Of a stretch of DNA of 64,000 nt, positions 7,431-55,679 are shown in pieces. The position numbers and the translations under genes were made by a program. Position 1 is the first letter of the stretch, and the number at the start of each line of letters is the position of its first letter. Below the pieces are notes generated by a model. That model had not been told where the DNA came from and did not search any database. It worked only from the letters and a program-made list of their open reading frames with translations. This DNA is from Naegleria gruberi (taxonomy: Eukaryota): NCBI GenBank assembly GCA_000004985.1, contig GG738902.1; one strand, written 5' to 3'.

Positions 7431-7829
7431 CGTCCAATATTAATATTAATAATAATAATAAATAATCATCATCACAATTTTTCATCATCCATCATCATAA
7501 ATATTGACACAATCATCATCAAGAATAACAACAATATTAAATCCTTCCGCAACCAAATTCAAACTCTTCTCTTACCTTCTTCAATATTTACTTCACTTCT
7601 TGCGCTTCTCATTTTTTTATTTTCGTTTTATTTTAAAAATAAATTTTTCTATGAATAATTTAAATCAATTTTTGGAAGCATTTCGAAATTGTTGTGTTTT
7701 TATTATTACTGAAAGAATTAATATCATCACACATTTGAATTTCAGAATGGAGAAGTTATCCAGCCAGTAGAGATTATTTTGAAAATTTTCGTGGAGCTTT
7801 TTTCATGAGAGAATTAAGAGAGCTTTCGT

Positions 7830-8747
7830 TTAACATATTGAGAGAGTGGCTTCTCCTTGTATTCCTCTTGTGCTGACAATTATGGCATGCTTTGGAGTGA
7901 GTGTAGGAGACCATTCACAGACAGCCATAAACAGTTGTTGTAAAACTTCATCATCTCTTTGCAGTATTATATTAAAGGAAAGGTAGCAGTCAAGAATATT
8001 TCCAGTTACTTTGCCCTTCTGTGAGCCATTCTCAAAGGTTCCTTGTACGTATTTGGTATTTTCTTTAAATTTAAGAGTGAAGACATCTCCACCAGCAATA
8101 CTCAACTTCCAATCTTGTTTTCTTAATAATAATAAGGAATTCTTCTCATATTCAAAATCAAATGTATCATAATTAATCTTGATGAGCTTGTTATTGATGT
8201 CCACCACATTGAAATTTTTGAATTGTCTTTGATTGACATTTTCAGAACTACAGAAACCACTTCTATTGATTGAATCACACCAAACTCCATGAATGGCAAC
8301 GTCTATATTTGCTCCCTTATCTTCTCTCATATTGTATTTGTAATTCTTTTCCTGTGTCCACAATTCCTCTTTACCTTGGCCTTCTCTCTTTTTCTTGGCC
8401 TTATAAACAATTTTTCTACCCAAAACATTTGTAATGAGATCTGTTGAGGTATGCCAAATCTGAAAAATTGAAATATATAAACCCCATGATATTCCAAAAT
8501 AAATGTAGTTATCAGAATCGGGAGCATCAATTGCAAAACATTTTCCTGTAAAGAACTCAATATTGTACAACTTGGCTTTCTTAAGAGATGACTCAACCCA
8601 TGAAAAATCACCCAAATCATAGGAGCCATAGTAATCTACAATTGATCTCATACTTTCATAAGCAGTAATATCAGTTTTCAAAATATAAGTGTAAGACTGA
8701 GCAACTACTTTATGAGTTCCACAATTGTAAAATCTTAAACCAGCCAT
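7830..8747 (-). CDS. Hypothetical protein, 305 aa. It may be the 3' exon of the F-box gene that starts at 9181.
   Basis: A long ORF with no recognisable domain. A 38-nt GTTTAT...ATAG candidate intron (about 8748-8785) would join it in frame to the upstream F-box ORF. The donor is non-canonical, so the join is tentative. Confidence 0.5.
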   Translation of the reverse strand: MAGLRFYNCGTHKVVAQSYTYILKTDITAYESMRSIVDYYGSYDLGDFSWVESSLKKAKLYNIEFFTGKCFAIDAPDSDNYIYFGISWGLYISIFQIWHTSTDLITNVLGRKIVYKAKKKREGQGKEELWTQEKNYKYNMREDKGANIDVAIHGVWCDSINRSGFCSSENVNQRQFKNFNVVDINNKLIKINYDTFDFEYEKNSLLLLRKQDWKLSIAGGDVFTLKFKENTKYVQGTFENGSQKGKVTGNILDCYLSFNIILQRDDEVLQQLFMAVCEWSPTLTPKHAIIVSTRGIQGEATLSIC

Positions 8748-8779
8748 TTTACCATCAACTATTTGCCATCAGATGATCA

Positions 8780-9181
8780 TTAGTCCAATAATAAACAAAG
8801 AAACATACCAAAAACTGATCGGATCAATTTTTTGTAACTAATATCTTTCATACTAATATTCATCATAGATGTTTTTGATATACTAGTTTTTCCCAACAAG
8901 GAACTCTTCCAAACACTTTCAAAATGTTTATCGGTTAACATTTGTAATTGCCAATCAGGAAAGATACGATAAAACTTTTCCTTCCAACACTCATTGTCAT
9001 CCAACATTATTCTTGCTCTTTTACATAACAAAAACAATGAAAGAACATCAGATACTCCAATAAATGGAAAAATTGAGTGTTTAATCAATTCGGGTGGCAA
9101 AACATTTAACCAATTAACGCGTGATTCATTAGAATCAAGTTGTGGCATTTTTTTTGAGGTTTTTTTAAACAAGTTCACCAC
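8780..9181 (-). CDS. F-box-like protein N-terminal segment (the ORF-caller start is GTG; the true ATG is internal)
   Basis: The motif LNVLPPELIKHSIFPFIGVSDVLSLFLLCKRARIML fits an F-box. The ORF ends with a TAA stop at 8780-8782, immediately before a possible micro-intron. Confidence 0.4.
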   Translation of the reverse strand: MVNLFKKTSKKMPQLDSNESRVNWLNVLPPELIKHSIFPFIGVSDVLSLFLLCKRARIMLDDNECWKEKFYRIFPDWQLQMLTDKHFESVWKSSLLGKTSISKTSMMNISMKDISYKKLIRSVFGMFLCLLLD

Positions 9182-9382
9182 TTTGGAAATGATTAAGCTA
9201 TTTACAATCTAAAAAAACTTCAAATTGATTAGTAGTTGGGACGGTGCAAAACACATGAAAAACACTGTAGTTGGTTCAAGTTGAAAAATGTGTTTGGATT
9301 CTTTTTTTTGAAATGGAATGAACACACAACAATTTGGAACTTTAATAGTGATTGTTGAAGGTACACTACGGAAAAAGAGAAT

Positions 9383-11192
9383 TTAATAGAGGGTAGTGTT
9401 TGGTCTTGGATTTGGAAGAACACCTTTCGATTCAAAATATGTGACCATTTGTTTAGGTATTTCGGCTAAGACTTCTGAGGCCAATTCTGTTAAATTAGAG
9501 CATTTTGAAAAGCTCACAAATTGAACAATGTCTCTGGTCATCTTCTTTCCATTGCTGTGGACGAGTGGTTCATCATCTGCGTCGAATTTTCTACAACTAG
9601 GGAATCTACTATCACCAACACCAACAATGATAATTGAAATTGGTTTGTCATTGGCCTCAACGATTGAATCTATTGTGCCTTGCATGTCAAATGCATCACC
9701 ATCAATAATTAACAATAAAATATTGTAGAATTGTTGGTGTTGAGTTATTGGAGGAGTTTTTTCTACAACGTGTTCAATTACACGATAAAAGTCATCACCA
9801 CGATATGCCTTTCCAGTTTTTGGATTGGTAGCAGAGCCCATATCTCCAAAACTTAATTTTGGAACTGCCTTAACGTAAGCATCCAGAATTTCTTCAGCTC
9901 CACACAATTCTTCCTTATCAGAAAGTGAAAGGTTAAACATTGGGTGCATTTTGGATTCCTTCTCTATAGTAGCACCGTATCCATAAGCTTCCAATAATTG
10001 GTGTAAAACGATTGTAGATTGTATAGTACTTACCGCCATACATCTTGTCAGAATCGTAAGGCTCCAAAATATGCAATACTTGCTCAAGAGCTTGTTGATA
10101 ATCATTCTTGTTTTTGGCGTTCAAATGGTGGAGGGAATAGGGATAAGTGTAAGTACCGTTTGATGCTGTAAAGTCAATTCCAACTGATACTGAAATATTA
10201 CATCCTCCAAACAGATAATCCAAAAATTCAGTTTGTCTGTTTTCCTTTCGTGCAATTGTTGATTCATATATTTCATGGATAGGATTGGGAATTGGAACTT
10301 GTACCACATCAATAGCACATAAAGAAAACTCAAATATTCCAGAATTTTTGTACTTCTTCTTCTTTAGTTGTATGGTTGGCTCAATCAAGTCAAATTGCTT
10401 TACCTTGTTATTCAATACTTGATCTAGAGTGAACCTGAACTCTCCTATCAAATCATCTTTAGAAAATTTGTCCTTATCAAAGCATTTTACAAATATTTCC
10501 TTTTGATAATCGTTATTGAACTCATCAAGATTGATTTTGAATGGTAACCAAGACGGGTTCAATGTCTTGCAGATAACTTCACTAGTATAGAGAGGGACTC
10601 TTCTTCCAGCCACATCCTTCTCAAAATAAAAATATGGATCTGATTTTCCAAGTAAATCCTTCTTGTCTAACCCAATTCCTCTACATTCGAATGAAATAAT
10701 TTTCATTTCCGAGTTAACAGTTAATGGTATCTCAGAATGTAAACCATTCAATTCATCCAAGCTCATATTTGCAAATCGGATCATCATGGCATTCTTTTCA
10801 GCCTCAACAACATCTACATTCGAATCAGATTGTCTCACCACCTTCTCAACATGAACAAAAACTTCACCTTTAACTTCTCCACTCTTCAAAACCAAATCTA
10901 ATTTTAATTTACCATCTCTAGCACAAACAGCTTGTGATAGAGTAAATTCTTTGGTCTTTCCAATAAGTCTATTACTATTTCCTGTATCTTCATCAAATAT
11001 TTCAATATATAATTTCTGCACACACTCAAAGTAATAATGAACACTAAACTTGGTTTTGAATACTGGGTTATGATTATTCTGAATAGTTTCAGTTGAACCG
11101 AGACATGAAAAATCAGTTGATATCAAAGTTTGTGAATTTTCCTGTGGGCCACTATAGTAAAGCTTTGCAAACGGATCACTCTTAGAGTACAT
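9383..11192 (-). CDS. Copine (C2-C2-vWA). Two exons: complement(join(9383..9987,10034..11192)), about 587 aa.
   Basis: Two C2 domains precede a vWA domain. A 46-nt GTAAGT...AG intron at 9988-10033 joins DSDKM-YGA-YGYGA, which parallels the conserved copine DSDKMFPAFGFGA. The downstream vWA motifs (IIIVGVG, DIVQFV) are intact. Confidence 0.85.
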
Positions 11193-11268
11193 CCATTCGT
11201 ACCAAATTACTACATGATAGGTAAATATCGACCGATTCTCTGTAGTTCATACTTTGTCAAAGTAATGT

Positions 11269-13930
11269 TTGTTAGGAAGACGTGTGGTCGATTTTTTTTT
11301 TGCTTTGTTTGATCGAATCCCAAAATGTAAACTACCTGAAGAATTAGGAAAACTTGCTCAATTTAAAAAAAAATCAAACACAAAAAAATACAACAGACCT
11401 GTTATGAAAGAATCATCAGCGTCTCTCGCACAGAGTTGTGTTGAACAAAAGGATTGGAATCATCAGCAGCAGCAACAAGAACAACTGCAACATCATGAGA
11501 GGGATTTATTTTCATCAATAGCAACAACTAACAATGAAACGTGTTGTCAACAAGAACATACAAGTAAAATAGGAAAGTTAATATCATCATTATGTATATA
11601 TAATTCGAAGAGTCATAATCGGATCAGAGTTTCAAAATTTTGCAATGTAAAATTATGGATAATAATTGTATATTTATTAATATTATTAGATTTATTTTCT
11701 GTACAATACATTCATGCGGAGGTTTTATCATTTGAGAACAAACATCATCACGAAACCGATGTTTTAAAAAAGTTTAGGGAAATGATACGGAAAAGTGATT
11801 ATCCATTAGAAAATTTAAAATCACCCTCTGATAATCATCCTCTGATATTTCCGATTTTTGATAAGAAACGAAATTCTTATCATTCCAAAGGATTTTGGAG
11901 GACAATAGAAGGATTTTATCCTGTTTATAACGAGCAACCAAAGAGAGTTAGCAATAGTGAAAAGAAGACATCTACTACATTGAAACTTTTTACTGCTTTA
12001 CAAAAAGAGAATGGATTGGCAGATGCTGTTGGAAATTATCTAAACAAAGGTTTAGATATCGAGTCTATGGTCAATCCAAATGAATTAATTACGAGAACTG
12101 ATTATCTTCCAGAAGACAAATCTAAATTATTTTACACTAATGTGCATGTTGCAGGTTCACTCAAGATGAATCTGGTTTTTAAAAAAACTATTTTGAGAGA
12201 TTATTACTTTGTGTATGGAACAGTTGCCATGAGGAATGGTAAATATTTCCTTGAGCGAGAAAATTTGCTCTTTCTAGAAGGAGTCTACTCTCTCTTTACC
12301 AATCAATTTCATTTCATTTTAAAACCTAAGAAATACTTATTTTATAGAATGCCAGATTATCTAGATAAGGAATTATTGAATCAAACAGTATTTAATGGAG
12401 ATGCTGGAGCAGAGTTGGCCTATCATTCCTATGTGGATCATTATATTGAAGAATTACAAGAAATGGGTATGGACTATGACTCATACTCTTACTATAGCTC
12501 AGCCTACCATTCTCAACAAGACTCTGTCAACTTTGAAAAATCTAAAAGAGAGAGTTGCGTATTTAAAGGACTAGGTATTGGAAAAGCTAATATTCACGAT
12601 CAAAAACTTAAAAACTTTGTTGAATCATTTGAAACCAATGATTTTAATGAAATTTTGGAGTGGAGTCTCTCAGGAATTGTTACTGGTATTAATTGTAATC
12701 ATACCCTCATGTTCTCTCAAACATTCCATGATAATAGTGAATTTACTCATGAAGTCAAGATTTTCTTGAGAATCTCTACACTTCTTTCCATCTTTCTCAT
12801 ATTTGGCATGTTGAGACAGATCAAGAGTACTGCTACAAGATCAGCAGCACAAAGGATCTCAATTCTGTTCGTCGGCTTTACATTTACACTTTCTTTCCTT
12901 TTCTTCTCTGGATCTCTCATTTTCCTTTTCAACTTTTACTCAGTTTTTAGTATTTCATTGGCTCTTTCCTTTATGAGTTTCCTCTACCTAACTTGCAGCA
13001 TTCAGTATGTGCTTTACATTTGGAAGTCTCACTATCCAAATCATTACGAGAATGTGGTGAGAGCCTCTGTTTTCTTTTTCTTTTGGGGATTTTTAATGAC
13101 TGTATTATTTGGAGGGTACGTATTAGAAATAATTGTTAATTTAACATTTGAGAAAGTTATTACCTTTCACACGTATATCCACACTTACTGAGATATATTT
13201 TATTTATTGGATTTTCATTCATTGTTCCTCAAATTATTTCAAACTTTGTTTACAATACCAGAAAGTCGGTGGATTTGGTCTATTTGACCTCTCTTGTGGT
13301 ATTCTTTTCATTCCTGGTACTATGTAAGTTTCATTTATTAATTCATTGAATTGATTGGTTGAACTTCTGTTATTGTAGACTTTGGAACAAGACCTGAAAA
13401 CTTTTTGGAATTTAAAACAAACTATACTTACTGCTTCCTAATTCTATCCTACATGTATATTCAGTATGGTATCTTTTTAGCACAAAACTTGATTGATCCT
13501 AGATTGAATATTTTGAGTACTCACTTATTTGGATTTATGCTTCCACCAAAATACAATTATCATAGACCAATTCCAGAATCGATGTTGGAAGAGGGAGAGT
13601 GTAAATGCGTTATTTGTATGTCGGAAATTGAAATACCTGAAAATGATACAACCAGTGATGCCTTACTAGTGGAGGTCAATAACAATTCAACTCTAACAAA
13701 TAGAAAAAAGAAAGCAGAAAATTATTCGTCAAAAGACTTTATGGTCACACCTTGCAATCACGTTTTCCACACAGTTTGTCTGGAGAAGGTTAGTTTTTTC
13801 TGATTTAAATTAATTTTTAATATTTCTATTGTGATAATTCTCAATAATTATATATTTATTTTAATAATTAAAGTGGAAGGAATATAAGCTAGAATGTCCT
13901 TTGTGCAAAAAGGATTTGCCAATGAACTAG
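11269..13930 (+). CDS. Transmembrane RING-H2 E3 ubiquitin ligase of the Tul1/Dsc1 family (multi-exon)
   Basis: It has a large lumenal N-domain, a block of multiple TM helices, and a C-terminal RING-H2 split by an 85-nt intron (13789-13873). The joined RING reads CVICMSEIEIPEN...MVTPCNHVFHTVCLEK|WKEYKLECPLCKKDLP, closely resembling yeast Tul1 CAICMSDV...MVTPCNHVFHTSCLENWMNYKLQCPVCR. Further exons are 13379-13788 and about 13193-13323. The internal structure around 13150-13195 is unresolved. Confidence 0.7.
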
Positions 13931-44989: not shown

Positions 44990-46669
44990 ATGAATAATCA
45001 ACAACCGCCTCCATTTCTCAACTCTTCCCAATATCAGCAGCAACAACAACAATACTCGAATAATACAACAGGATCGGGTGTTGTTGGAGGCTATTCAAAT
45101 GTTCCTCATCCACTTGATCCACTCTCTTCGCAGAGAATGACCACTTCCTTTTCAGCATCACCTCTTCCACCACTTCCTCAGGGTCATCATCATATTAATC
45201 ATCAACATTATCAATCATTTAATCAGCCTTCACCAACACTTTCTGGCGGTATGAATACGAGTGGTTATTTAAGTACGACAGGAGGTATGCCACACTCTCA
45301 TAGTTCTTCATCAATTGCTTCTGCAACTTCATCGGTTGGTGTTGGACAACCACCAGAATATATGATGCGTTCGGGAACTGTATTTACTGCTGGTCCTGGT
45401 ATTGGAAGTTCAATTTCACTCTCACAACAACATGAAGCTGTCAGAGCCTTTTTGAAGGGAAATGATTTTCCAATTAGAACACCTAAAAAAGTACAAGACA
45501 TCAAGGGAACTTCATTGGAAGAATGTGTAGAATTGGCAAAAAGTGAATCATGGAAAGAATTTTTAAAAGTATGTGAAAAACAAGTCAAAGAACCTGGTCA
45601 ACAGCATATTATGTTACAATGGAGATTATCTCAATTGGTCACACTTTTGAGATTGAATCAAACTGAATATGCTCAAATGTGTATCGATAGTATGGGAGAT
45701 TTGGAAAACAATTCCACCTATTTCTATGAGAAATATCCAAATATTTACAATGTAAATCAACAAAGCAAGACTGGTAACATGATGCCATTTACAATTTTGA
45801 TTATCAAGGCCATTCTTCCACTATTACAATATTTAAAGAATCCAAATGCTCAACAACAACAACAACAGCAGCAACAGAGTCAAAATCCAAATCTCCCTCC
45901 CCTTCCAGGGAGTGATGGATCTGCAATTGCTATGGAAAGATTGTATGCCCTGTTGAAGATTTGTGCAGATCAAATCAAAGAAGGTGGTGGATTTTTGTAC
46001 AGTAAGAGATGTAAACTTCATTCCAAAATGACTATTGTCTACACACCATTCGAAGGAACACAAGAAGAATGGAAGTTGAGAGAACAAAGAGTTGTATTTT
46101 ATATTATTACTTGTCACATTGCTAGAAAGGAATACTATTTGGCAATTCAAATTTTGGAAAAGCTGTTAAAGCATTACTCTGGTTTGATAGAATCAGATTT
46201 TAGTACTTATCAAAGACTCGAGTCATTGTTGGGTTGTTTATATCTTCAACAAGGTCTTTTGAAACCAGCAAGAGATCACTTTGTAAATGTAGAAAAGAGA
46301 GAAACAAATCCAGAAAGATCAACCCTTGTCAGAGCAAACAGTGGTTATCTCAAGTTTGCTTATGGCCATTTTGTAGATGCTTGTAAAGAGTTTACATTCA
46401 TTCTTACAGAGTTGGATCCTCTCAGTGTCAATGCTGCCAATAATAGATCTATTTGCATGTTGTATATGTGTGAACTTGGGAAGGCTATTGATGGCGTTGA
46501 GGAATTTGTGAGACAAGATCCAGCTGTTACTTTGGAACATAATTTAGTCTATAACCTCTGTACATTATACGATTTGGAGAGTACTGAGAGCAGTGAAAAG
46601 AAGATGATTATTAGCTCTCTAGCTCACAGATTTAAAGGAGACGATTTTGGAAATTGGATTATCCAATAA
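44990..46669 (+). CDS. TPR-like helical-repeat protein with poly-Q tracts (possibly TRAPPC12/TTC15-like)
   Basis: A 559-aa ORF. The N-terminus is Q/S/P-rich and low-complexity; the C-terminal ~250 aa have TPR-like periodicity. Homology is not certain. Confidence 0.45.
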   Translation: MNNQQPPPFLNSSQYQQQQQQYSNNTTGSGVVGGYSNVPHPLDPLSSQRMTTSFSASPLPPLPQGHHHINHQHYQSFNQPSPTLSGGMNTSGYLSTTGGMPHSHSSSSIASATSSVGVGQPPEYMMRSGTVFTAGPGIGSSISLSQQHEAVRAFLKGNDFPIRTPKKVQDIKGTSLEECVELAKSESWKEFLKVCEKQVKEPGQQHIMLQWRLSQLVTLLRLNQTEYAQMCIDSMGDLENNSTYFYEKYPNIYNVNQQSKTGNMMPFTILIIKAILPLLQYLKNPNAQQQQQQQQQSQNPNLPPLPGSDGSAIAMERLYALLKICADQIKEGGGFLYSKRCKLHSKMTIVYTPFEGTQEEWKLREQRVVFYIITCHIARKEYYLAIQILEKLLKHYSGLIESDFSTYQRLESLLGCLYLQQGLLKPARDHFVNVEKRETNPERSTLVRANSGYLKFAYGHFVDACKEFTFILTELDPLSVNAANNRSICMLYMCELGKAIDGVEEFVRQDPAVTLEHNLVYNLCTLYDLESTESSEKKMIISSLAHRFKGDDFGNWIIQ

Positions 46670-46674
46670 ATTTA

Positions 46675-49600
46675 TTATTGGCTTGTCATTTTGACCACTT
46701 CAGATGTTGGAATTGTCAATGCTTCCATATTGTCGTCGTGATATATTTCAGTAGCATTTTGTACTGGTGGTAAAATAATAGTGCTGTATGGAGGAGGTAA
46801 TATTCCATTACTTACTGGCATATTTCCATATGCTGTAGTGTTGACAGAAGGAGGTTCATAAGAATAATATGCAGTTCTTGGTGGAGATCTTGGAGGACTC
46901 GAAGTAAATGCTGATAATGGTTGAGGATATGGAGTATAGATTGGAGGTGGAGTATTGAGTATTGGTACATCAAACATTTCATACTCATTTCTTCTCTTGT
47001 TGAGAGGAGTATTGGCTTCCTTAGTTGGGAAGAAGACTTCATAGTCAGCAAAGGTATGTGTAGTCTTATTGGTTGAACTAGTTGGACTTCTGTGAACAGA
47101 TTGTTGTTGAGGAGTAGTATAGATTGACTGCTGTTTCTTATTGAGTGGTTTACCACTGGTTGATTTGATTGATTTAGAACTACTACTTGGAGGAGCTTTG
47201 ATGGCACACTTCTTTCTCTTTGGTGCTTGAATGCAAGCAATGAAAAGGAATAAAAAGAACCAAATAGCAAAACCAAGAAGGAATAACCCAAAGGTTGCTG
47301 CAATACATAGATATCTTGCAAGCTCAAATTTGTTTGGAACATAGAGAACCTTTGATCCTTTGCATTGTAAATTACTCCAACCAACAGCACTCAAACCACC
47401 CTCAATGTTTGCCACTTCGAGTGGAGTGGTTGGTTTGTTGGAATTTACGAAAAACTCAGTAATAGGATTAGATGTTGAATGTACATTCAAACACTTGTAA
47501 GTATTTCCAAGTGTGATCATCTCAAAATCAGTATACACTGAATCAGTATAAGTACCAGATTGGACAACACAACAAGCATAGGCAGAATTACTTAATAACA
47601 ATTCGACGTTTGTGTCTTTCATCAAGCTTACTGTTTCAAAGATGGTGATACCTACAACAGATCCAAATCCTCCCAACCATAACACTGCAAGTAGTAAAAG
47701 CATTGTTCCCACTATAAACACAGAGCAATACCTCCTTTTTCTTTCATCCTGACTTTTAACACATCCTCTGCAAACTCTGATGGCAAGAAACATGGGAAGA
47801 GTTGCGAACAGAGCAGGAATGAATGATTCCCACTCCTTTTCATTTTCAATGTTAATCTTCTTTTTCCTGATTGTTTGAATACAGAATACGCAAGTGAAAA
47901 AGAGAGAATACAAGAGAACAATACCAACAATACATCCAGCAGTAATATACGACTCAAAGAAGTAATTTTCAAGGTACACGTTTTCCCCAGATTCTACATT
48001 TTCAGCAGTTCCTCTGAACGAAGCACTTGCAAACGTTTGATCTGTTGGGAATCTTATTAAAATCTTTGAGTATGTTGCAAGTTTGGAAGCATCAACATCC
48101 AAGATGAATTTGAGGGCTTTCAAGGTTGTTTGATGTTGCTTGTAGACATAGTCGTTTCTTGTGGGAGTAATTGTTTCCAACTTGTTTGGATATAACGAAA
48201 TTGCGTATACTGTTGGAGTCGGAACTGAGGTAAATTGTTGACTGAATAATTCAATCAAATACTGTCCAGTGTCTTTGGCATCACTGTAATCCACTTCAAC
48301 AATAGTTCCAGGGTTTACAACAAATTTGGTCAAGTAAGAAGATGATGAGATTGAAGCCTTTGATGGGGTTGTTGTCATTAAATAACTGAACTTGGCTTGA
48401 GAGGAAAAAGAGGAAGAATCGCATGATTGGGGAGAATATGTTTCCAGAGGATGTATGAGCATATAGATAGCCTTATCTTGTAGTTTCAAATATGGAGTGT
48501 TCACAAAAGATGTACCTGAACTAGTCTCAAAGATTATTCCATTTTCGTATCCAATAATGTTGACCTTGTAATTGGTTTGAGATGAAATATCTAGCTTAAT
48601 ATTATAGTTATTAGAGTCTACAGGTTTTCCTACCCCAAGATAAATATTGTACTTCCTACCTGATAACATTAAATTTTGACTGTCCATCAACATTGTAATT
48701 TGGAAATTATTAGAAACAGTATTTACAACCATTCGTTGCGTTACATCTTCTGTTGGAGAAGCATAATATGGTAATTGAATTGTATTATATCCAGGTGAGG
48801 AGAGAGAGAAGGCAAGTTGAGGGGAAGATATGGATTGTACAACATAGTTAACTGTTGTATTTGAAATTGTAAAGGCAGGATCTAATTGAAGGTTAAATTT
48901 CCAAACTCCATTAAGGGATGGCTGAAGCCATGTCGAAATACCAATAGTGTTTGTGAATTCATTCAGACAGTTAACAGTGACAGTCTTAGAAAAAGCAAGA
49001 ACAAATCTCTGAAGAGTTCCTTGTGCGGCTGTTAATTTCAATGTTGGAGGTGTTAAATTGAATTGACCCTGACTTATTACCGGTTGTAAATTCTGAACAG
49101 TTACAAAAGCAAGAAGGTAACTGTCCTCTGTTGGGTTATAGGAGATATAGTAAGGGTAGGATCCTGTTGAAGATTGAGGCAAAGCTTGGCTGTAAACACC
49201 ATCAAGGGGCAGGGAGGGTGGATTTAAGTACATGTTTGGAATTGAAAAGGACAATACTGCAGAACAAGTATCACAATTGTTCTCTACAATCACTATCAAT
49301 GATCCAATAGGAATTTGCTTAAATGAGATTATGTGTGTATAAGTGTTTGAAGCAGAAATGACTTGGTGGGCTTTTGAAACATCGAGAGTGATAGGCATTT
49401 CACCACTTTGGATAATGAATAAATAGTATGGACGAGTGGAGAGTGCAGACGTAGAAATTTCTATATCTTGTGGTGTATTATCCCGAGTGGAGTAGCTTAT
49501 AATTTTTAAGGCATTTACCTCACCATTAACAATTGGTTTAGGAATTGTAAAAGATTGATCAATAGCCATACTCTTAATGCCTTAGTAGTTGAGTTAATTA

Positions 49601-51143
49601 TTTTAACAATTGGCTTATACTTACTCTTTTTCAACATTGTAATAGTACCTGTGGTGTTAGAAACTTTACTATTCGTGATCTTGAAAGTTAGAGATGTTGC
49701 TCCATTCAGTTTAGAATTTAACAATGTTGATGGAATAATAAAGGAAGTGGTTGTGACAGAGATTTGAGGAATCGTTATTGTCTGTAATGTGGCGGAAGAT
49801 GATACAACAATCGTTCCGTTGAAGGTGCTGTTAAAACTAATGTAGGTCTGAATGAAAGCAATCGCTGTGGTAGTGACATACGAAGCAATGATAACTCTCT
49901 TTGAATTATCAACCTTGAATGCTAGTGCTTTTTCATAAACTGAATAATAGGTATTGGGAGAATAAGGATCGACATTGACTGTCGAGTTGCTATTTGTTGT
50001 GGTATTATTATTACTTGCAGTATTGTTGGATGTCTGGGTTGAATTTGTGATTACATTACTAGTAGAATTGACAGACGAATTGGGTATGCCAGTATTATTT
50101 GTTTTAGACAAGTATGTGAGCGAGATTGAGGAGGATTGAACTCTTGAGCTTATCAAAGGATCATAATATTTTCCATTCATACGAGTTGCGTAAGTAACAG
50201 TGGAAGTGGTATTTGTTGTGATATTGCTGTCGTTTCTCCATTTATACATGATGTAAACTTGAATTGATTGACTGGCTTGTAATGTCACATAACTGACATA
50301 AAGACTGGCTGTGTTTGAGCTGCTTATTGGTATGAGAGTATATGATTTGATGGCTGTTTGTACATTTGTTGAATGATTAACCCTAACAAGCTTTACAATT
50401 GAAATATCGAGGTTTGAAATGCTTAGAGATTCGAACTTGATATCCAGATATACGTCTGTTATTGTATCTATACCAGAGTTTTTAATGGTCACAACATTGG
50501 TTGAATTTCTATTTGATTGATTTGATGCAATGACTACCGTTGATGGTTTTGAAGTGATACCCAAATCCACAACAGGTGTTGTTGAAGGAACATAACACAG
50601 ATACAAATACATGGATTGAATTAACAATTCCTCTGGTGTCAATCTCTTCAATGTCAGCTTGTTAGAATAATCTTTCAAATACACATACGAAAGACCAGTA
50701 ACATCCACACTTGATGCTTTCGAAATTCCCAAATTACAAGCATCCTTCGTACCACAATAAACACTGGGATTCAGATAGGGATATTTCATTATATTCAAAT
50801 CATTAATAAGCATTGAATAATTTGCTGAAAAACTCGATGAGGAGGAACATGAAGTAAATCGATAATTAATTTTCGATCCAACCATTCCCTGATAAATCAA
50901 TACTTTCCTACTCGACCCACCAGTATATGAAAATGTTCCATTCAATGAGGTACTTTTCCAACTCTTGTTATAATCATTGCAAACGTAGGAATAATAATTA
51001 TTGGGTGTAAAGAAAACTTCAACATTCTCGCATGTGGGTGAAACATTCTGACCGAAGACTGTAATGTTATTATGTATTACTAGGAAGAATAATACAAGGA
51101 AGACTATTTGATAAGCATTTAAAACTTTTGCAATATTTATCAT
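46675..51143 (-). CDS. Giant Ser/Thr/Asn-rich mucin-like multipass membrane glycoprotein, two exons: complement(join(46675..49580,49625..51143)), about 1474 aa
   Basis: It has an N-terminal signal peptide (MINIAKVLNAYQIVFLVLFFLVIHN). A ~1100-aa ectodomain is packed with N-x-S/T sites and S/T runs. Three to four TM helices follow, then a Pro/Tyr-rich cytoplasmic tail with PPxY-like motifs (PPPIYTPYP, LPPPYSTI). A 44-nt GTAAGT...AG intron at 49581-49624 merges the 542-aa and 964-aa ORFs in frame (TMLKK|SIKSMAIDQ). Confidence 0.65.
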
Positions 51144-51654: not shown

Positions 51655-51897
51655 TTATAAACCAGGGTAACTATCAACAAACTCAACAGTGAAATCAGGA
51701 TAATCCTCAACGATTTGAATCTTGAAATCTGGGTAGCTGTCAACTTCTTCCCAAAGACCAACACTGATTGGATAACTATCAACCATTTGAACTCTGAGAT
51801 CAGGATAACCGTCAACTACTTGTACCTTATAATCAGGGTAGCTATCAACAAATTCAATCTTTCCAAAGATTTTAGCAAGTTCTGATTTAGAAACCAT
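51655..51897 (-). CDS. 80-aa micro-protein made of about 7 tandem decapeptide repeats ([IV]VD[SG]YPD[YLF][KRT]VQ)
   Basis: MVSKSELAKIFGKIEFVDSYPDYKVQVVDGYPDLRVQMVDSYPISVGLWEEVDSYPDFKIQIVEDYPDFTVEFVDSYPGL. The ORF is intact and its period-10 repeat is maintained at protein level with varied codons, which suggests selection on the peptide. Confidence 0.45.
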   Translation of the reverse strand: MVSKSELAKIFGKIEFVDSYPDYKVQVVDGYPDLRVQMVDSYPISVGLWEEVDSYPDFKIQIVEDYPDFTVEFVDSYPGL

Positions 51898-52319: not shown

Positions 52320-55300
52320 TTGAGAAGGATAATAATAATGGCCAGTAGCAGTAATAATAATTGTATTCTCACCACATCGGATGATGGTGACTCTATCTAT
52401 TTTGTCTCATCACGGGATAAGCAACATACACTCAAGCAATTACAAACGAGTACGGAACATTTTCAAAAGAAGGAATACAAAGTAGCCATTGAAATATTGG
52501 AGAAGTGTGTTCAGATACCCTCGGATACATTGATCACTGTTTCAGGGTGTGATTTCAATGATGGAGAATGTATCAAGGGAATAGCTGAACAAGCTGATAA
52601 ACAAATTGTTGAATTAATTGGAAAGATGTTTATCACTAAAGGACTTTGCTATTTTAATTCGACAATTGTTGCTGAGAGTGATGAAAAGAAGGATCTGTAT
52701 TTTACTAAAGCACTGCAAGATTTTGCTGCAGTTGCCAGACACTACAAACTGTACAAACAATTGTATTATTATGATAATCAACAATCACTCTTGCAAGATA
52801 TCGATGGCTTGTATGTATTTGTTACAACTATGAAGTCGTACTTCCTTGAGGGAAGATGTCTTCAACAATTGAGGGGATATCAAGTGGACGGAATTTCATC
52901 TCTGGAGAAGGCAGTCATTGCATTTAGTGAGGCAATTCAAATGGCCGAGTATTTGAAGAGTAATTCATCAGGGGTGGCCAGTGAGAAGGTTTGTCTCTCT
53001 GCTCTCGAACAATTGCCACAATATTATCTCAATAGAGCCCTCTCTCATAATGATATCAATTCTTACAGACCAGCAGAGGCCGATTTTACGAGTTACATCT
53101 CACTGATTGGTAATACTAACGATAAAGAAAGAAAATCTACATTATTCATGATTGCTTATCATAATAGAGGAATTTCACTTTCCTACATGCAAAAGTACGT
53201 GGAGGCAATTGAGGATTTCACAAAATCAATTGAACATTACCAGGAAATTCCACAAAATAGTCCAGACAAGAAACAACAATTTGATAGCTTTTTAGAAACT
53301 CACTCCAAAAGGGCTAAAGCAATTCATAGATTCATTGTGGATCATGTACACGACTGCAGAGATAATAACGACAAAGCAATGATGGACAAGATTTTGAAAC
53401 TCAAAACTCTTGCATGTGAAGATTTTGAATTTGTAAGCAAACACAAGCCTAATAGTGTTTATAATAATCATTTCAACACGAGCCAAATTTTGAATATGGT
53501 GGCAACCATTCTCTCCCCAATATTACCAAAGGAAGTTCAATTTGAGCTTTACTCTCAATCTATTCCACACTTGAGAGAATGCATCAAACAGGGAAATAAC
53601 TACAAGACAAGTTTGGATCTTGCTAAAGCATTGTCAAAAACTGGAACTGGTCAAAATGAAGAAATTCTCGATTTGTATAATAGAGCTGTGAAATTATTGG
53701 ATGTTGAATCAAGCAAAAAAGTTTCTGGAGAGCAGAAGGCAAATATATTCTTTGAGAGAGGAGTTTTGTACAACAAAATGGAAAGAGTAGAACAAGCCAT
53801 TATGGACTTTACTACTTCTATTGATTTACATCAACAGTTTTTGGAAGCTTACTTTAATAGAGCCATTCTTTATTATACTAAAAGTAGAAATACAATTTTA
53901 GCTATTAAGGATTTGGAAAAAGTTATTGAAATCGATCCTAAAGATACCACTGCCTTGATAGAACTGGCAGTTTTATTGGCCTCTAATGGTCAAGTTGAGG
54001 AAGGTACCAAGAGATTGAATCAAACCTTAGAATGTGACCCAAACAATGAAACAGCTCACAAATATTTGAAAATTCTCCAAGAAAATGAATCTCCTCTTCC
54101 CTCCAATGATATTTTCGAGATTAGAGAAGATCATGTCGAGGAAGTGCCTTTCACTATTCGTCAAGTTCAAAGACCCACTTCTGACAACTTTGGATTCAAA
54201 CTCTTCAAAAAGAAGACTAAGGAGGTTGATCCTGAAGAACAACTGAAGCAGTCAGTACCTCCACCAAAAACAAGATCTACCAATTCAATGTTTTTGGACA
54301 ACTCTCTTCCACCAATAACCAGTTCCATTCTAGGAGCTGGAACTAGAGCAGATTTTGATCTTCCACCTCACATTGTAAATTTGGATACAGATCTTGTCTG
54401 GTTACGTCCTTCACAAATAACTGGTGTAACCAAGCCAGCACTTTTTGTCGATGGTTCCAATTATAAGGATGTCATTCAAGGTTCTCTTGGTAATTGTTGG
54501 ATGCTTAGTGCAATGGCCATTGTTGCTTCTCATGATTTTGTAATGAAAAAGGTTGTTGTTGAATCAAAAACAAACTCTGCAATTGGAAAATACACATTTT
54601 GCCTTTTCAAGGAGGGACGGAATAAGGAAATTACTATTGATGACTTGATTCCTTGTGATGTAACTACAAATTCGTATGTGTTCTCCAGATCAGCAGATCC
54701 CAACGAGTTGTGGGTGCCACTGTTGGAGAAGGCTTACGCAGCTCTCTATGGAAATTATTTCTCCTTGAAGGGAGGTCATTTGAAAGATGCTCTCGTTGAT
54801 CTTACTGGTGGTATTTCATTTTCATATGATATTGACCCAAAAAAGATTGAGGAAGTGTGGCAATACCTTTCGTGCCTACCAAAGCAAAACAGCTCAAGTA
54901 GCTCCTTCAAATTGATGGGTGCAAGATCCGAGACATCAGCTTCTGACTATACTGGTATTATCAATTTCCATGCCTATGCTATTTTGGATGCTATAGAGTT
55001 CCCTCCACATTTAACCAATAGTCAGAGAGTAAGATTAATCAAAATGAAAAATCCTTGGGCTAACGGAATTGAATGGAAGGGAGAGTGGTCAGATTATTGC
55101 CCTCGCTGGAGTCCAGAGCTTAGAAAATATGTAGGAAATGACTTTAATTCTCAAGATGGTATTTTTTACATGTCATTGGAATATTTTGTTGTCCAATGGA
55201 ATATGATTGAAGGTGTGGAAATTTTCGTAAATGGAAAATGGAATGAATTCTTAGCGACTGGAAGATTTGATTCAAATATTAGAAGCGATAACAATTGGAT

Positions 55301-55679
55301 GTTAGATGTTTTGGAAGAAACCCAATTCTTTATTGAAAACCCATATGAAAATAATCGTTTGGTAATTTCACTCACTCAGTTGGACACCAGATATGTTCAC
55401 GATTCAAAGGATGATGATTCATGTATTGCAGTTCATTTGATTAGAGTTGATCAGCCATCCCCATCTAGATTGATCAAGATCAACAAGAAGGATATCATAG
55501 TTCAAGGTGATTACAAATACGACAGAGAAATAGTCGTTGATTGTTGTCTTCCATCAGGTTCCTACGTTGCCATACCTCACGAATATTTTACTACCAATTG
55601 TAAAAATACTGAACTGGGAGCATATACCATTAGAATTTTATCAGAAAGTAAGGTAAAGGTCACTACGATCAATCCTTAA
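52320..55679 (+). CDS. TPR-repeat / calpain-family cysteine protease fusion, 1119 aa
   Basis: The N-terminal ~560 aa contain multiple TPR repeats. The C-terminal calpain catalytic core has the Cys site GSLGNCWMLSAMAIVAS, His in INFHAYAILDA and Asn/Trp in MKNPWANGIEWKGEWSD, followed by a domain-III-like beta sandwich. Confidence 0.85.
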   Translation: MRRIIIMASSSNNNCILTTSDDGDSIYFVSSRDKQHTLKQLQTSTEHFQKKEYKVAIEILEKCVQIPSDTLITVSGCDFNDGECIKGIAEQADKQIVELIGKMFITKGLCYFNSTIVAESDEKKDLYFTKALQDFAAVARHYKLYKQLYYYDNQQSLLQDIDGLYVFVTTMKSYFLEGRCLQQLRGYQVDGISSLEKAVIAFSEAIQMAEYLKSNSSGVASEKVCLSALEQLPQYYLNRALSHNDINSYRPAEADFTSYISLIGNTNDKERKSTLFMIAYHNRGISLSYMQKYVEAIEDFTKSIEHYQEIPQNSPDKKQQFDSFLETHSKRAKAIHRFIVDHVHDCRDNNDKAMMDKILKLKTLACEDFEFVSKHKPNSVYNNHFNTSQILNMVATILSPILPKEVQFELYSQSIPHLRECIKQGNNYKTSLDLAKALSKTGTGQNEEILDLYNRAVKLLDVESSKKVSGEQKANIFFERGVLYNKMERVEQAIMDFTTSIDLHQQFLEAYFNRAILYYTKSRNTILAIKDLEKVIEIDPKDTTALIELAVLLASNGQVEEGTKRLNQTLECDPNNETAHKYLKILQENESPLPSNDIFEIREDHVEEVPFTIRQVQRPTSDNFGFKLFKKKTKEVDPEEQLKQSVPPPKTRSTNSMFLDNSLPPITSSILGAGTRADFDLPPHIVNLDTDLVWLRPSQITGVTKPALFVDGSNYKDVIQGSLGNCWMLSAMAIVASHDFVMKKVVVESKTNSAIGKYTFCLFKEGRNKEITIDDLIPCDVTTNSYVFSRSADPNELWVPLLEKAYAALYGNYFSLKGGHLKDALVDLTGGISFSYDIDPKKIEEVWQYLSCLPKQNSSSSSFKLMGARSETSASDYTGIINFHAYAILDAIEFPPHLTNSQRVRLIKMKNPWANGIEWKGEWSDYCPRWSPELRKYVGNDFNSQDGIFYMSLEYFVVQWNMIEGVEIFVNGKWNEFLATGRFDSNIRSDNNWMLDVLEETQFFIENPYENNRLVISLTQLDTRYVHDSKDDDSCIAVHLIRVDQPSPSRLIKINKKDIIVQGDYKYDREIVVDCCLPSGSYVAIPHEYFTTNCKNTELGAYTIRILSESKVKVTTINP

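Follow-up and report, generated by a model that had tools for sequence, protein, structure and literature searches.

In animals and fungi, PPxY motifs on membrane proteins are the canonical ligands of the Nedd4/Rsp5 ligases, and the PY-motif cargo proteins and adaptors of these ligases include NDFIP1/2 and the yeast protein Bsd2, which all combine three membrane spans with a PPxY motif, as well as LAPTM4/5. Here, we describe a gene of Naegleria gruberi encoded on the minus strand of a stretch of contig GG738902.1 comprising 64,000 nt (about 33% GC, AT-rich; the whole stretch is referred to as the window, and all coordinates are window positions unless another locus is named), whose product is a large membrane protein carrying a motif of this kind in its C-terminal tail. 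As a whole, it is best explained as a single-copy, lineage-specific, N-out/C-in polytopic glycoprotein with a conserved cytosolic PPPY motif, an interpretation that we hold with moderate confidence, and the function assigned to the motif, namely recruitment of a partner governing sorting or turnover, is put forward more tentatively. The structure of the gene and the restriction of its family to Naegleria and close relatives can be regarded as nearly certain.

Gene Structure and Conservation of the Intron

The gene is visible in the window as two minus-strand open reading frames (ORFs) at 49515-51143 (542 aa) and 46675-49569 (964 aa), which are in different frames and overlap by 55 nt. They are joined by a spliceosomal phase-1 intron of 44 nt, running on the minus strand from 49624 to 49581 (GTAAGTATAAGCCAATTGTTAAAATAATTAACTCAACTACTAAG), which shows the boundaries GTAAGT...AG and an internal TTAAC, follows AAG A, and is embedded between ATG TTG AAA AAG A and GC ATT AAG AGT ATG GCT. 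Excising these 44 nt yields a coding sequence of 4425 nt with one terminal stop and a product of 1474 aa (TMLKK-S-IKSMAIDQ over the junction). Exon 1 (49625-51143, minus strand) starts with the ATG at 51143 and encodes residues 1-506 plus the first base of codon 507, and exon 2 (46675-49580, minus strand) contributes the last two bases of this codon, residues 508-1474, and the stop at 46675-46677. In all 1474 aa, the spliced product matches the public N. gruberi protein XP_002671902.1 (100% identity, 100% coverage; NAEGRDRAFT_73124, EFC39158.1, UniProt D2VVS5; deposited as "predicted protein"). The two ORFs are one real, two-exon gene of N. gruberi that has already been annotated, and an earlier note on this DNA, which had joined them across the GTAAGT...AG intron at 49581-49624, was correct in this respect.

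The in-frame join alone is weak evidence for a splice, because the frame would stay open with any of 24 GT..AG pairs in this region. Among them, the pair chosen here is the only one in which the GTAAGT consensus is matched with the AG closest to it; the number of GTAAGT sequences in the window is not enriched. The decisive support is comparative, and with it the splice may be taken as established from sequence comparison. An exhaustive HMMER search over 1.84 billion representatives (cut-off E <= 0.001) returned four proteins including the query, the others being orthologues from N. lovaniensis (E 7e-100) and N. fowleri (3e-57) and one metagenome fragment (1.5e-11). The N. lovaniensis protein C9374_010341 comprises 1377 aa and the full-length N. 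fowleri protein CAG4709022.1 comprises 1424 aa, and both loci are syntenic with the window, with a TPR-calpain gene located divergently upstream, a gene for a protein of about 550 aa located convergently downstream, and the relative orientation kept. The proteins align gap-free over the N. gruberi junction (KKSIKS / KKEISV / KKEMST), and both relatives contain a phase-1 intron in the codon directly after KK, which reads GTACGT..CAG over 51 nt in N. fowleri (9948-9998 of the locus L001) and GTACGT..TAG over 50 nt in N. lovaniensis (7433-7482 of the locus L004). On the contig carrying the metagenome fragment (L005), GTAAGT occurs at the equivalent place after FKK, and excising 37 nt restores the frame. 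A retained intron would soon meet a stop codon in every species, and when the N. fowleri and N. lovaniensis genes are rebuilt from three exons each, their translations are identical to the full-length proteins on deposit.

Some details of the gene models in the relatives may be added. N. fowleri and N. lovaniensis share an extra phase-1 intron after STS/D (L001 9757-9803, 47 nt; L004 7238-7288, 51 nt), which is absent from N. gruberi and represents an intron gain or loss inside the genus. The N. fowleri reference annotation (VFQX01000007.1, L001 8397-12769) splits the orthologue into FDP41_010764, whose 460 aa read into this upstream intron (intron A), and FDP41_010765, whose 922 aa begin just past the conserved one (intron B), so that the middle exon of 144 nt (9804-9947) is lost; joining the three exons 8397-9756, 9804-9947, and 9999-12769 gives a protein identical to CAG4709022.1. 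The gene model of N. lovaniensis, C9374_010341 (PYSW02000041.1, L004 6001-10235), begins with MMNRKDLWAISAAGIPPTCEN and, unlike the N. gruberi and N. fowleri proteins, is devoid of a hydrophobic signal peptide; its start codon or a 5' exon has probably been mis-called. The metagenome contig (JGI metagenome 3300002220, contig MLSBCLC_10274469, 1952 nt, 37% GC) contains a distant member of the family with about 26% identity, which suggests an unsampled Naegleria-like heterolobosean as its source; two metagenome scans recovered neither this contig nor any further relative.

Distribution and Evolution of the Family

The N. gruberi protein shares 28-30% identity with its orthologues from N. fowleri and N. 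lovaniensis, as compared to 57-67% for the well-conserved parts of the flanking genes and 39-40% for the TPR half of the calpain gene, and a dN/dS value of about 0.17 was obtained along the full length between N. fowleri and N. lovaniensis. As judged from these sequences, the protein is fast-evolving, yet under purifying selection along its whole length. The orthologues have in common with it the syntenic position, the order of domains, the intron, an invariant pattern of Cys, Pro, and Gly in the membrane region, and the PPPY motif in the tail; they differ from it by the extra upstream intron, shorter tails, the presence of NPF, and a single PY motif in place of the two found in N. gruberi.

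No credible match was found for the four family members in Pfam, or in NCBIfam and the PDB, the latter searched by sequence as well as by profile; sub-threshold matches to SLAC1 and DUF5337 fall on the transmembrane (TM) helices and were dismissed. A word-indexed homology search with the full protein matched only the protein itself, no paralogue was detected in the window by tblastn, the N. gruberi protein was not encountered when assembled contigs were searched for exact matches, and a literature search by locus tags and accessions retrieved no paper, while one by the JGI number brought up only papers that look unrelated. The literature searched also provided no citable figure for the intron lengths of Naegleria. 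A Spirosoma protein of 50 aa listed in the 90% cluster of the N. fowleri protein exhibits no similarity to the family and looks like a database or tool artefact. As far as these searches reach, the gene is a single-copy orphan and encodes a predicted membrane glycoprotein confined to Naegleria and close relatives; the view of the earlier note that there is no obvious orthologue has to be replaced by that of syntenic orthologues in N. fowleri and N. lovaniensis, with none found outside the lineage.

Ectodomain

The positions given below for parts of the protein all refer to the minus strand. The protein starts with a signal-peptide-like N-terminus (residues 1-31, MINIAKVLNAYQIVFLVLFFLVIHNNITVFG, 51051-51143; Kyte-Doolittle (KD) peak 2.19), which may be cleaved after VFG and has an equivalent hydrophobic counterpart in the N. 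fowleri protein. It is followed by the most conserved module of the ectodomain (residues 32-200, 50544-51050), in which six Cys are invariant in the three species (PTCEN..VC..C..YC..D.CNLG..CY) and which shares 41-46% identity with the orthologues, versus 17-35% elsewhere. Residues 201-1050 form a long, non-repetitive part rich in beta-formers, which is broken by one low-complexity N/S/T-rich linker of about 55 residues (approximately residues 340-395, 49959-50126); this poorly conserved linker is the sole mucin-like stretch. Models were calculated with AlphaFold2 (AF2) on very shallow alignments and reached mean pLDDT values of 48 for residues 508-1300 and 30 for residues 32-345, the latter model being unusable. 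Apart from the linker, the ectodomain is conserved and predicted to be all-beta, and the whole ectodomain of about 1020 aa is probably made up of several beta-sandwich modules and the one short N/S/T linker.

A signal peptide followed by a very large N-terminal ectodomain had been proposed in the earlier note, and both are supported here, the signal peptide by hydropathy. The estimate of about 1470 aa for a large multipass membrane protein likewise holds at 1474 aa, but its description as mucin-like is not supported: self-BLAST detected no internal repeats in the ectodomain, Pro accounts for 4.7% of its residues, the number of N-x-S/T sequons corresponds to the compositional expectation (23 observed versus 20.9 +/- 3.8 in shuffles), and the sequence is constrained. 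Of the proposed N-glycosylated and S/T-rich character, the S/T-rich part is borne out by an S+T content of 25.7%, while the sequons are not above expectation.

Membrane Region and Topology

According to hydropathy plots of three species, three strong hydrophobic segments and a weaker one follow the ectodomain, in agreement with the 3-4 TM helices predicted previously. TM helix 1 (residues 1052-1075, 47875-47946; KD 2.64) is conserved in the orthologues. The weaker segment, termed H2 (residues 1092-1113, 47761-47826), exhibits KD values of 1.77 in N. gruberi and 2.33 in N. fowleri, contains an invariant central Pro (IPA..P), and leads into a stretch rich in Cys and Arg/Lys with invariant Cys clusters. 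TM helix 2 (residues 1125-1150, 47650-47727; KD 2.44) carries an invariant GFG.V.G, and is separated from TM helix 3 (residues 1262-1290, 47230-47316; KD 2.85) by a putative extracytoplasmic loop of about 110 aa (residues 1151-1261, 47317-47649) with four invariant Cys (CC..C..CKGSKV), which probably form two disulfides, and an invariant PTTP. As read from the sequences, the strongest Lys/Arg clusters flank H2 and TM2 and follow TM3. Because of this distribution, together with the Cys quartet in the large loop and the signal peptide, a three-span topology with the N-terminus outside and the C-terminus inside appears most likely, in which H2 may represent a re-entrant or lipid-anchored (acylated) segment at the cytosolic face.

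Tail and PPPY Motif

The tail of 184 aa (residues 1291-1474, 46678-47229) is predicted to be cytosolic, begins with KRKK, and is rich in Pro, Ser, Thr, and Tyr (P 15%, S+T about 25%). The tails of N. gruberi and either N. lovaniensis or N. fowleri are unalignable, since 68 and 23 of 300 shuffles, respectively, reach the observed local scores. The sole alignable element is ILPPPY (PPPPY in N. fowleri), which corresponds to residues 1433-1438 in N. gruberi (46786-46803; segment around Y1438, NGILPPPYSTII). Its distance from the C-terminus amounts to 40 residues in N. gruberi, 46 in N. lovaniensis, and 48 in N. fowleri. PPPY arises in 3.6%, 0.2%, and 0.3% of the shuffled tails of these species (0.036, 0.002, and 0.003). 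Its retention in tails that otherwise run free argues for ILPPPY being a functional short linear motif. A second PY-type motif, PPPIY (residues 1384-1388, 46936-46950), is present in N. gruberi only, with no counterpart in the orthologue tails, and carries little weight because PP.Y is common in shuffled N. gruberi tails. The Pro/Tyr-rich tail with PPxY motifs recognized in the earlier note is therefore confirmed in that both motifs are present and ILPPPY is conserved in the three species.

Other candidate sorting signals are also found in the tails. That of N. gruberi contains YEVF, YEMF, YGNM, and YSTI, which are of the YxxPhi type, and YPQPL, which is of the YPxnL type; those of N. lovaniensis and N. 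fowleri contain a conserved NPF and a conserved AFDRAISVYNLDD block. The two lineages thus appear to use different candidate endocytic signals. Such varied sorting signals would fit an endocytosed protein, but are not evidence in themselves.

Neighboring Genes

The gene divergent from the glycoprotein gene (52320-55679, plus strand) encodes a fusion of TPR repeats with a calpain (Peptidase_C2, Calpain_III) and is syntenic in the three Naegleria species, its calpain half being 56-58% and its TPR half 39-40% identical. Between the two genes, an ORF of 80 aa (51655-51897, minus strand) consists almost entirely of 11-aa repeats (VDSYPDYKVQV / VDGYPDLRVQM / VDSYPDFKIQI / VEDYPDFTVEF); it showed no credible match in Pfam or NCBIfam (one chance-level NCBIfam match, E 0.15), and neither N. 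fowleri nor N. lovaniensis has a counterpart in its syntenic interval. On the other side, the stop of the convergent gene (44990-46669, plus strand; 559 aa) is located 5 nt from that of the glycoprotein gene (46675-46677, minus strand), and the two 3' untranslated regions must therefore overlap in N. gruberi; the corresponding gap between the stops amounts to about 43-45 nt in N. fowleri and N. lovaniensis.

Discussion

The architecture proposed here may be translated into a mechanism, for which we infer the topology, glycosylation, and localization of the protein as well as the identity and function of the reader of its motif. The ectodomain would act in contact or recognition, either at the cell surface or in the phagosomal or endosomal lumen. 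From there, the chain would pass through TM1 into a basic, Cys-rich cytosolic loop containing the proline-kinked H2, return through TM2 to the outside loop, and enter the cytosol again through TM3, ending in a disordered tail. This tail would be free to evolve except for ILPPPY near the C-terminus, which would serve as the docking site for a proline/tyrosine-recognition module of the cytosol, with a WW domain as the most plausible candidate, and the docked module would control endocytic sorting or turnover of the glycoprotein.

Several points weigh against this interpretation and have to be considered together with the alternatives they may favor. The fold matches obtained for the ectodomain derive from low-confidence models (pLDDT 48 and 30) and say only "beta-sandwich-like." As to the gene model, two separate genes, or one ORF broken by an assembly frameshift, might be present instead of an intron; the frames would equally be joined by an indel of 1 nt at any position in 49518-49581, and the reference annotation of N. 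fowleri does divide the orthologue into two genes. However, in four independent assemblies the identical codon is interrupted in the identical phase by a GT..AG interval that measures 37-51 nt and includes an in-frame stop, the alignment is unbroken over the junction, the second ORF alone would have no signal peptide, and in the second annotation of N. fowleri the protein is complete (CAG4709022.1). The two-gene and frameshift readings are rejected on these comparative grounds, retaining hardly any probability. As to the topology, the strong hydrophobicity of H2 in N. fowleri and the packing of four helices in the AF2 model would be in accord with H2 being a true TM helix in a four-helix bundle similar to tetraspanins or sarcospan. 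In that arrangement, the loop with the Cys quartet would face the cytosol, and the PPPY-bearing tail would lie outside the cell; the cytosolic placing of the PPxY motifs depends on the inferred topology. We consider this unlikely, since the positive-inside rule and the signal peptide fit the three-span, N-out, C-in arrangement alone. The tetraspanin profile PF00335 gave no match at E <= 1 in the four family members, the CCG motif of tetraspanins is absent from the loop (ACCVVQ / ACCEVQ / SCCETQ), and in place of their cytosolic N-terminus the protein starts with a signal peptide and an ectodomain of 1020 aa.

Further points of this kind concern the partner of the motif. The Nedd4-family ligases as the classic readers of PPxY are reported absent outside opisthokonts and apusozoans, a WW-domain reader was not identified here in Naegleria, whose proteomes were not searched for one, and the looser pattern PP.Y occurs by chance in 22% of the shuffled N. 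gruberi tails, which are rich in Pro and Tyr. In the earlier note, the protein had been suggested to be regulated by a Nedd4-type E3 ligase; on this reading, a C2-WW-HECT enzyme would bind PPxY, ubiquitinate the protein, and drive its down-regulation. This would fit the conservation of PPPY in three species and the status of PPxY as canonical Nedd4/Rsp5 ligand in animals and fungi (background in PMC3673628), but the C2/WW/HECT Nedd4 group has been assigned to the ancestor of opisthokonts (PMC2770060) or of opisthokonts and apusozoans (PMC3673628) in two surveys which both included N. gruberi, and the only N. gruberi HECT proteins that are individually described in the latter survey carry other domains (GL-Bikonta, with kinase domains; PMC3673628). 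Because both surveys restrict the group in this way, the cognate ligase family is not known in N. gruberi, and a Nedd4-type ligase specifically is quite an unlikely reader; the simplest assumption is a reader that contains a WW domain within a different architecture. Alternatively, the tail may be a generic disordered spacer or a ligand of SH3, EVH1, profilin, or AP-2 (via YxxPhi), with the shared PPPY being coincidental or not related to WW domains. The frequency of PP.Y in shuffled tails, the YxxPhi motifs and YPQPL of N. gruberi, and the NPF of N. lovaniensis and N. fowleri may be quoted in favor of this possibility, which deserves to be taken seriously without being probable. It is opposed by the recurrence of ILPPPY/PPPPY at a nearly equal distance from the C-terminus, for which the shuffles indicate a joint chance of the order of 1e-4, and by the lack of conservation of YxxPhi at this site (YSTI, YAQA, YSHA).

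The annotation of N. gruberi is little changed by this analysis, as it already includes the spliced model in public form, and the protein remains an uncharacterized orphan. What has been gained is the comparative proof of the splice, together with the recognition that the N. fowleri gene has been wrongly split in its reference annotation and that the start of the N. lovaniensis gene is probably wrong. The restricted distribution and fast evolution of the family are of relevance to the search for lineage-specific surface antigens of the pathogen N. fowleri, and the conserved ILPPPY offers a testable handle on the sorting of membrane proteins in a lineage in which PY/WW biology is undescribed. 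It would be of wider consequence if a PPxY-based sorting or turnover signal were indeed operating on a membrane protein of a discobid (heterolobosean) reported to be without Nedd4-family ligases, which at present must be called doubtful. In this case, either a WW-domain E3 ligase or adaptor has gone unrecognized in Naegleria, or the recognition of PY-motif cargo has evolved independently outside the opisthokonts, and the family would constitute a new heterolobosean-specific class of three-span surface receptors.

A view on the known kinds of membrane proteins indicates that nothing in the N. gruberi protein departs from them, as it is a membrane glycoprotein that is specific to its lineage and bears a PY-type motif. 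With the mucins, it shares the high content of Ser and Thr, many N-x-S/T sequons, and one low-complexity N/S/T stretch, but it is distinguished from them by the lack of Pro/Thr/Ser tandem repeats, the low content of Pro, and a conserved sequence that is predicted to be folded. The fold matches of the ectodomain (6-13% sequence identity, with the model at pLDDT 48) include the extracellular domain of SID1/SIDT proteins and other tandem beta-sandwich modules, such as jelly-roll, PPC/collagen-binding, and GOLD domains. The Pfam profile of the SID1 channel gave no match, and SID1 proteins contain 11 TM helices, in contrast to the 3-4 hydrophobic segments present here; all that can be learned from the match to the SID1-type fold is that beta-sandwiches are the likely building blocks of the ectodomain. 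NDFIP1/2, Bsd2, and LAPTM4/5 are polytopic like the N. gruberi protein and expose a PPxY motif to the cytosol, as the latter would do in the three-span topology favored here. However, they show no sequence similarity or Pfam match to it, and the Naegleria protein differs further in presenting its PY motif at the C-terminal rather than the N-terminal end and in carrying a huge ectodomain.

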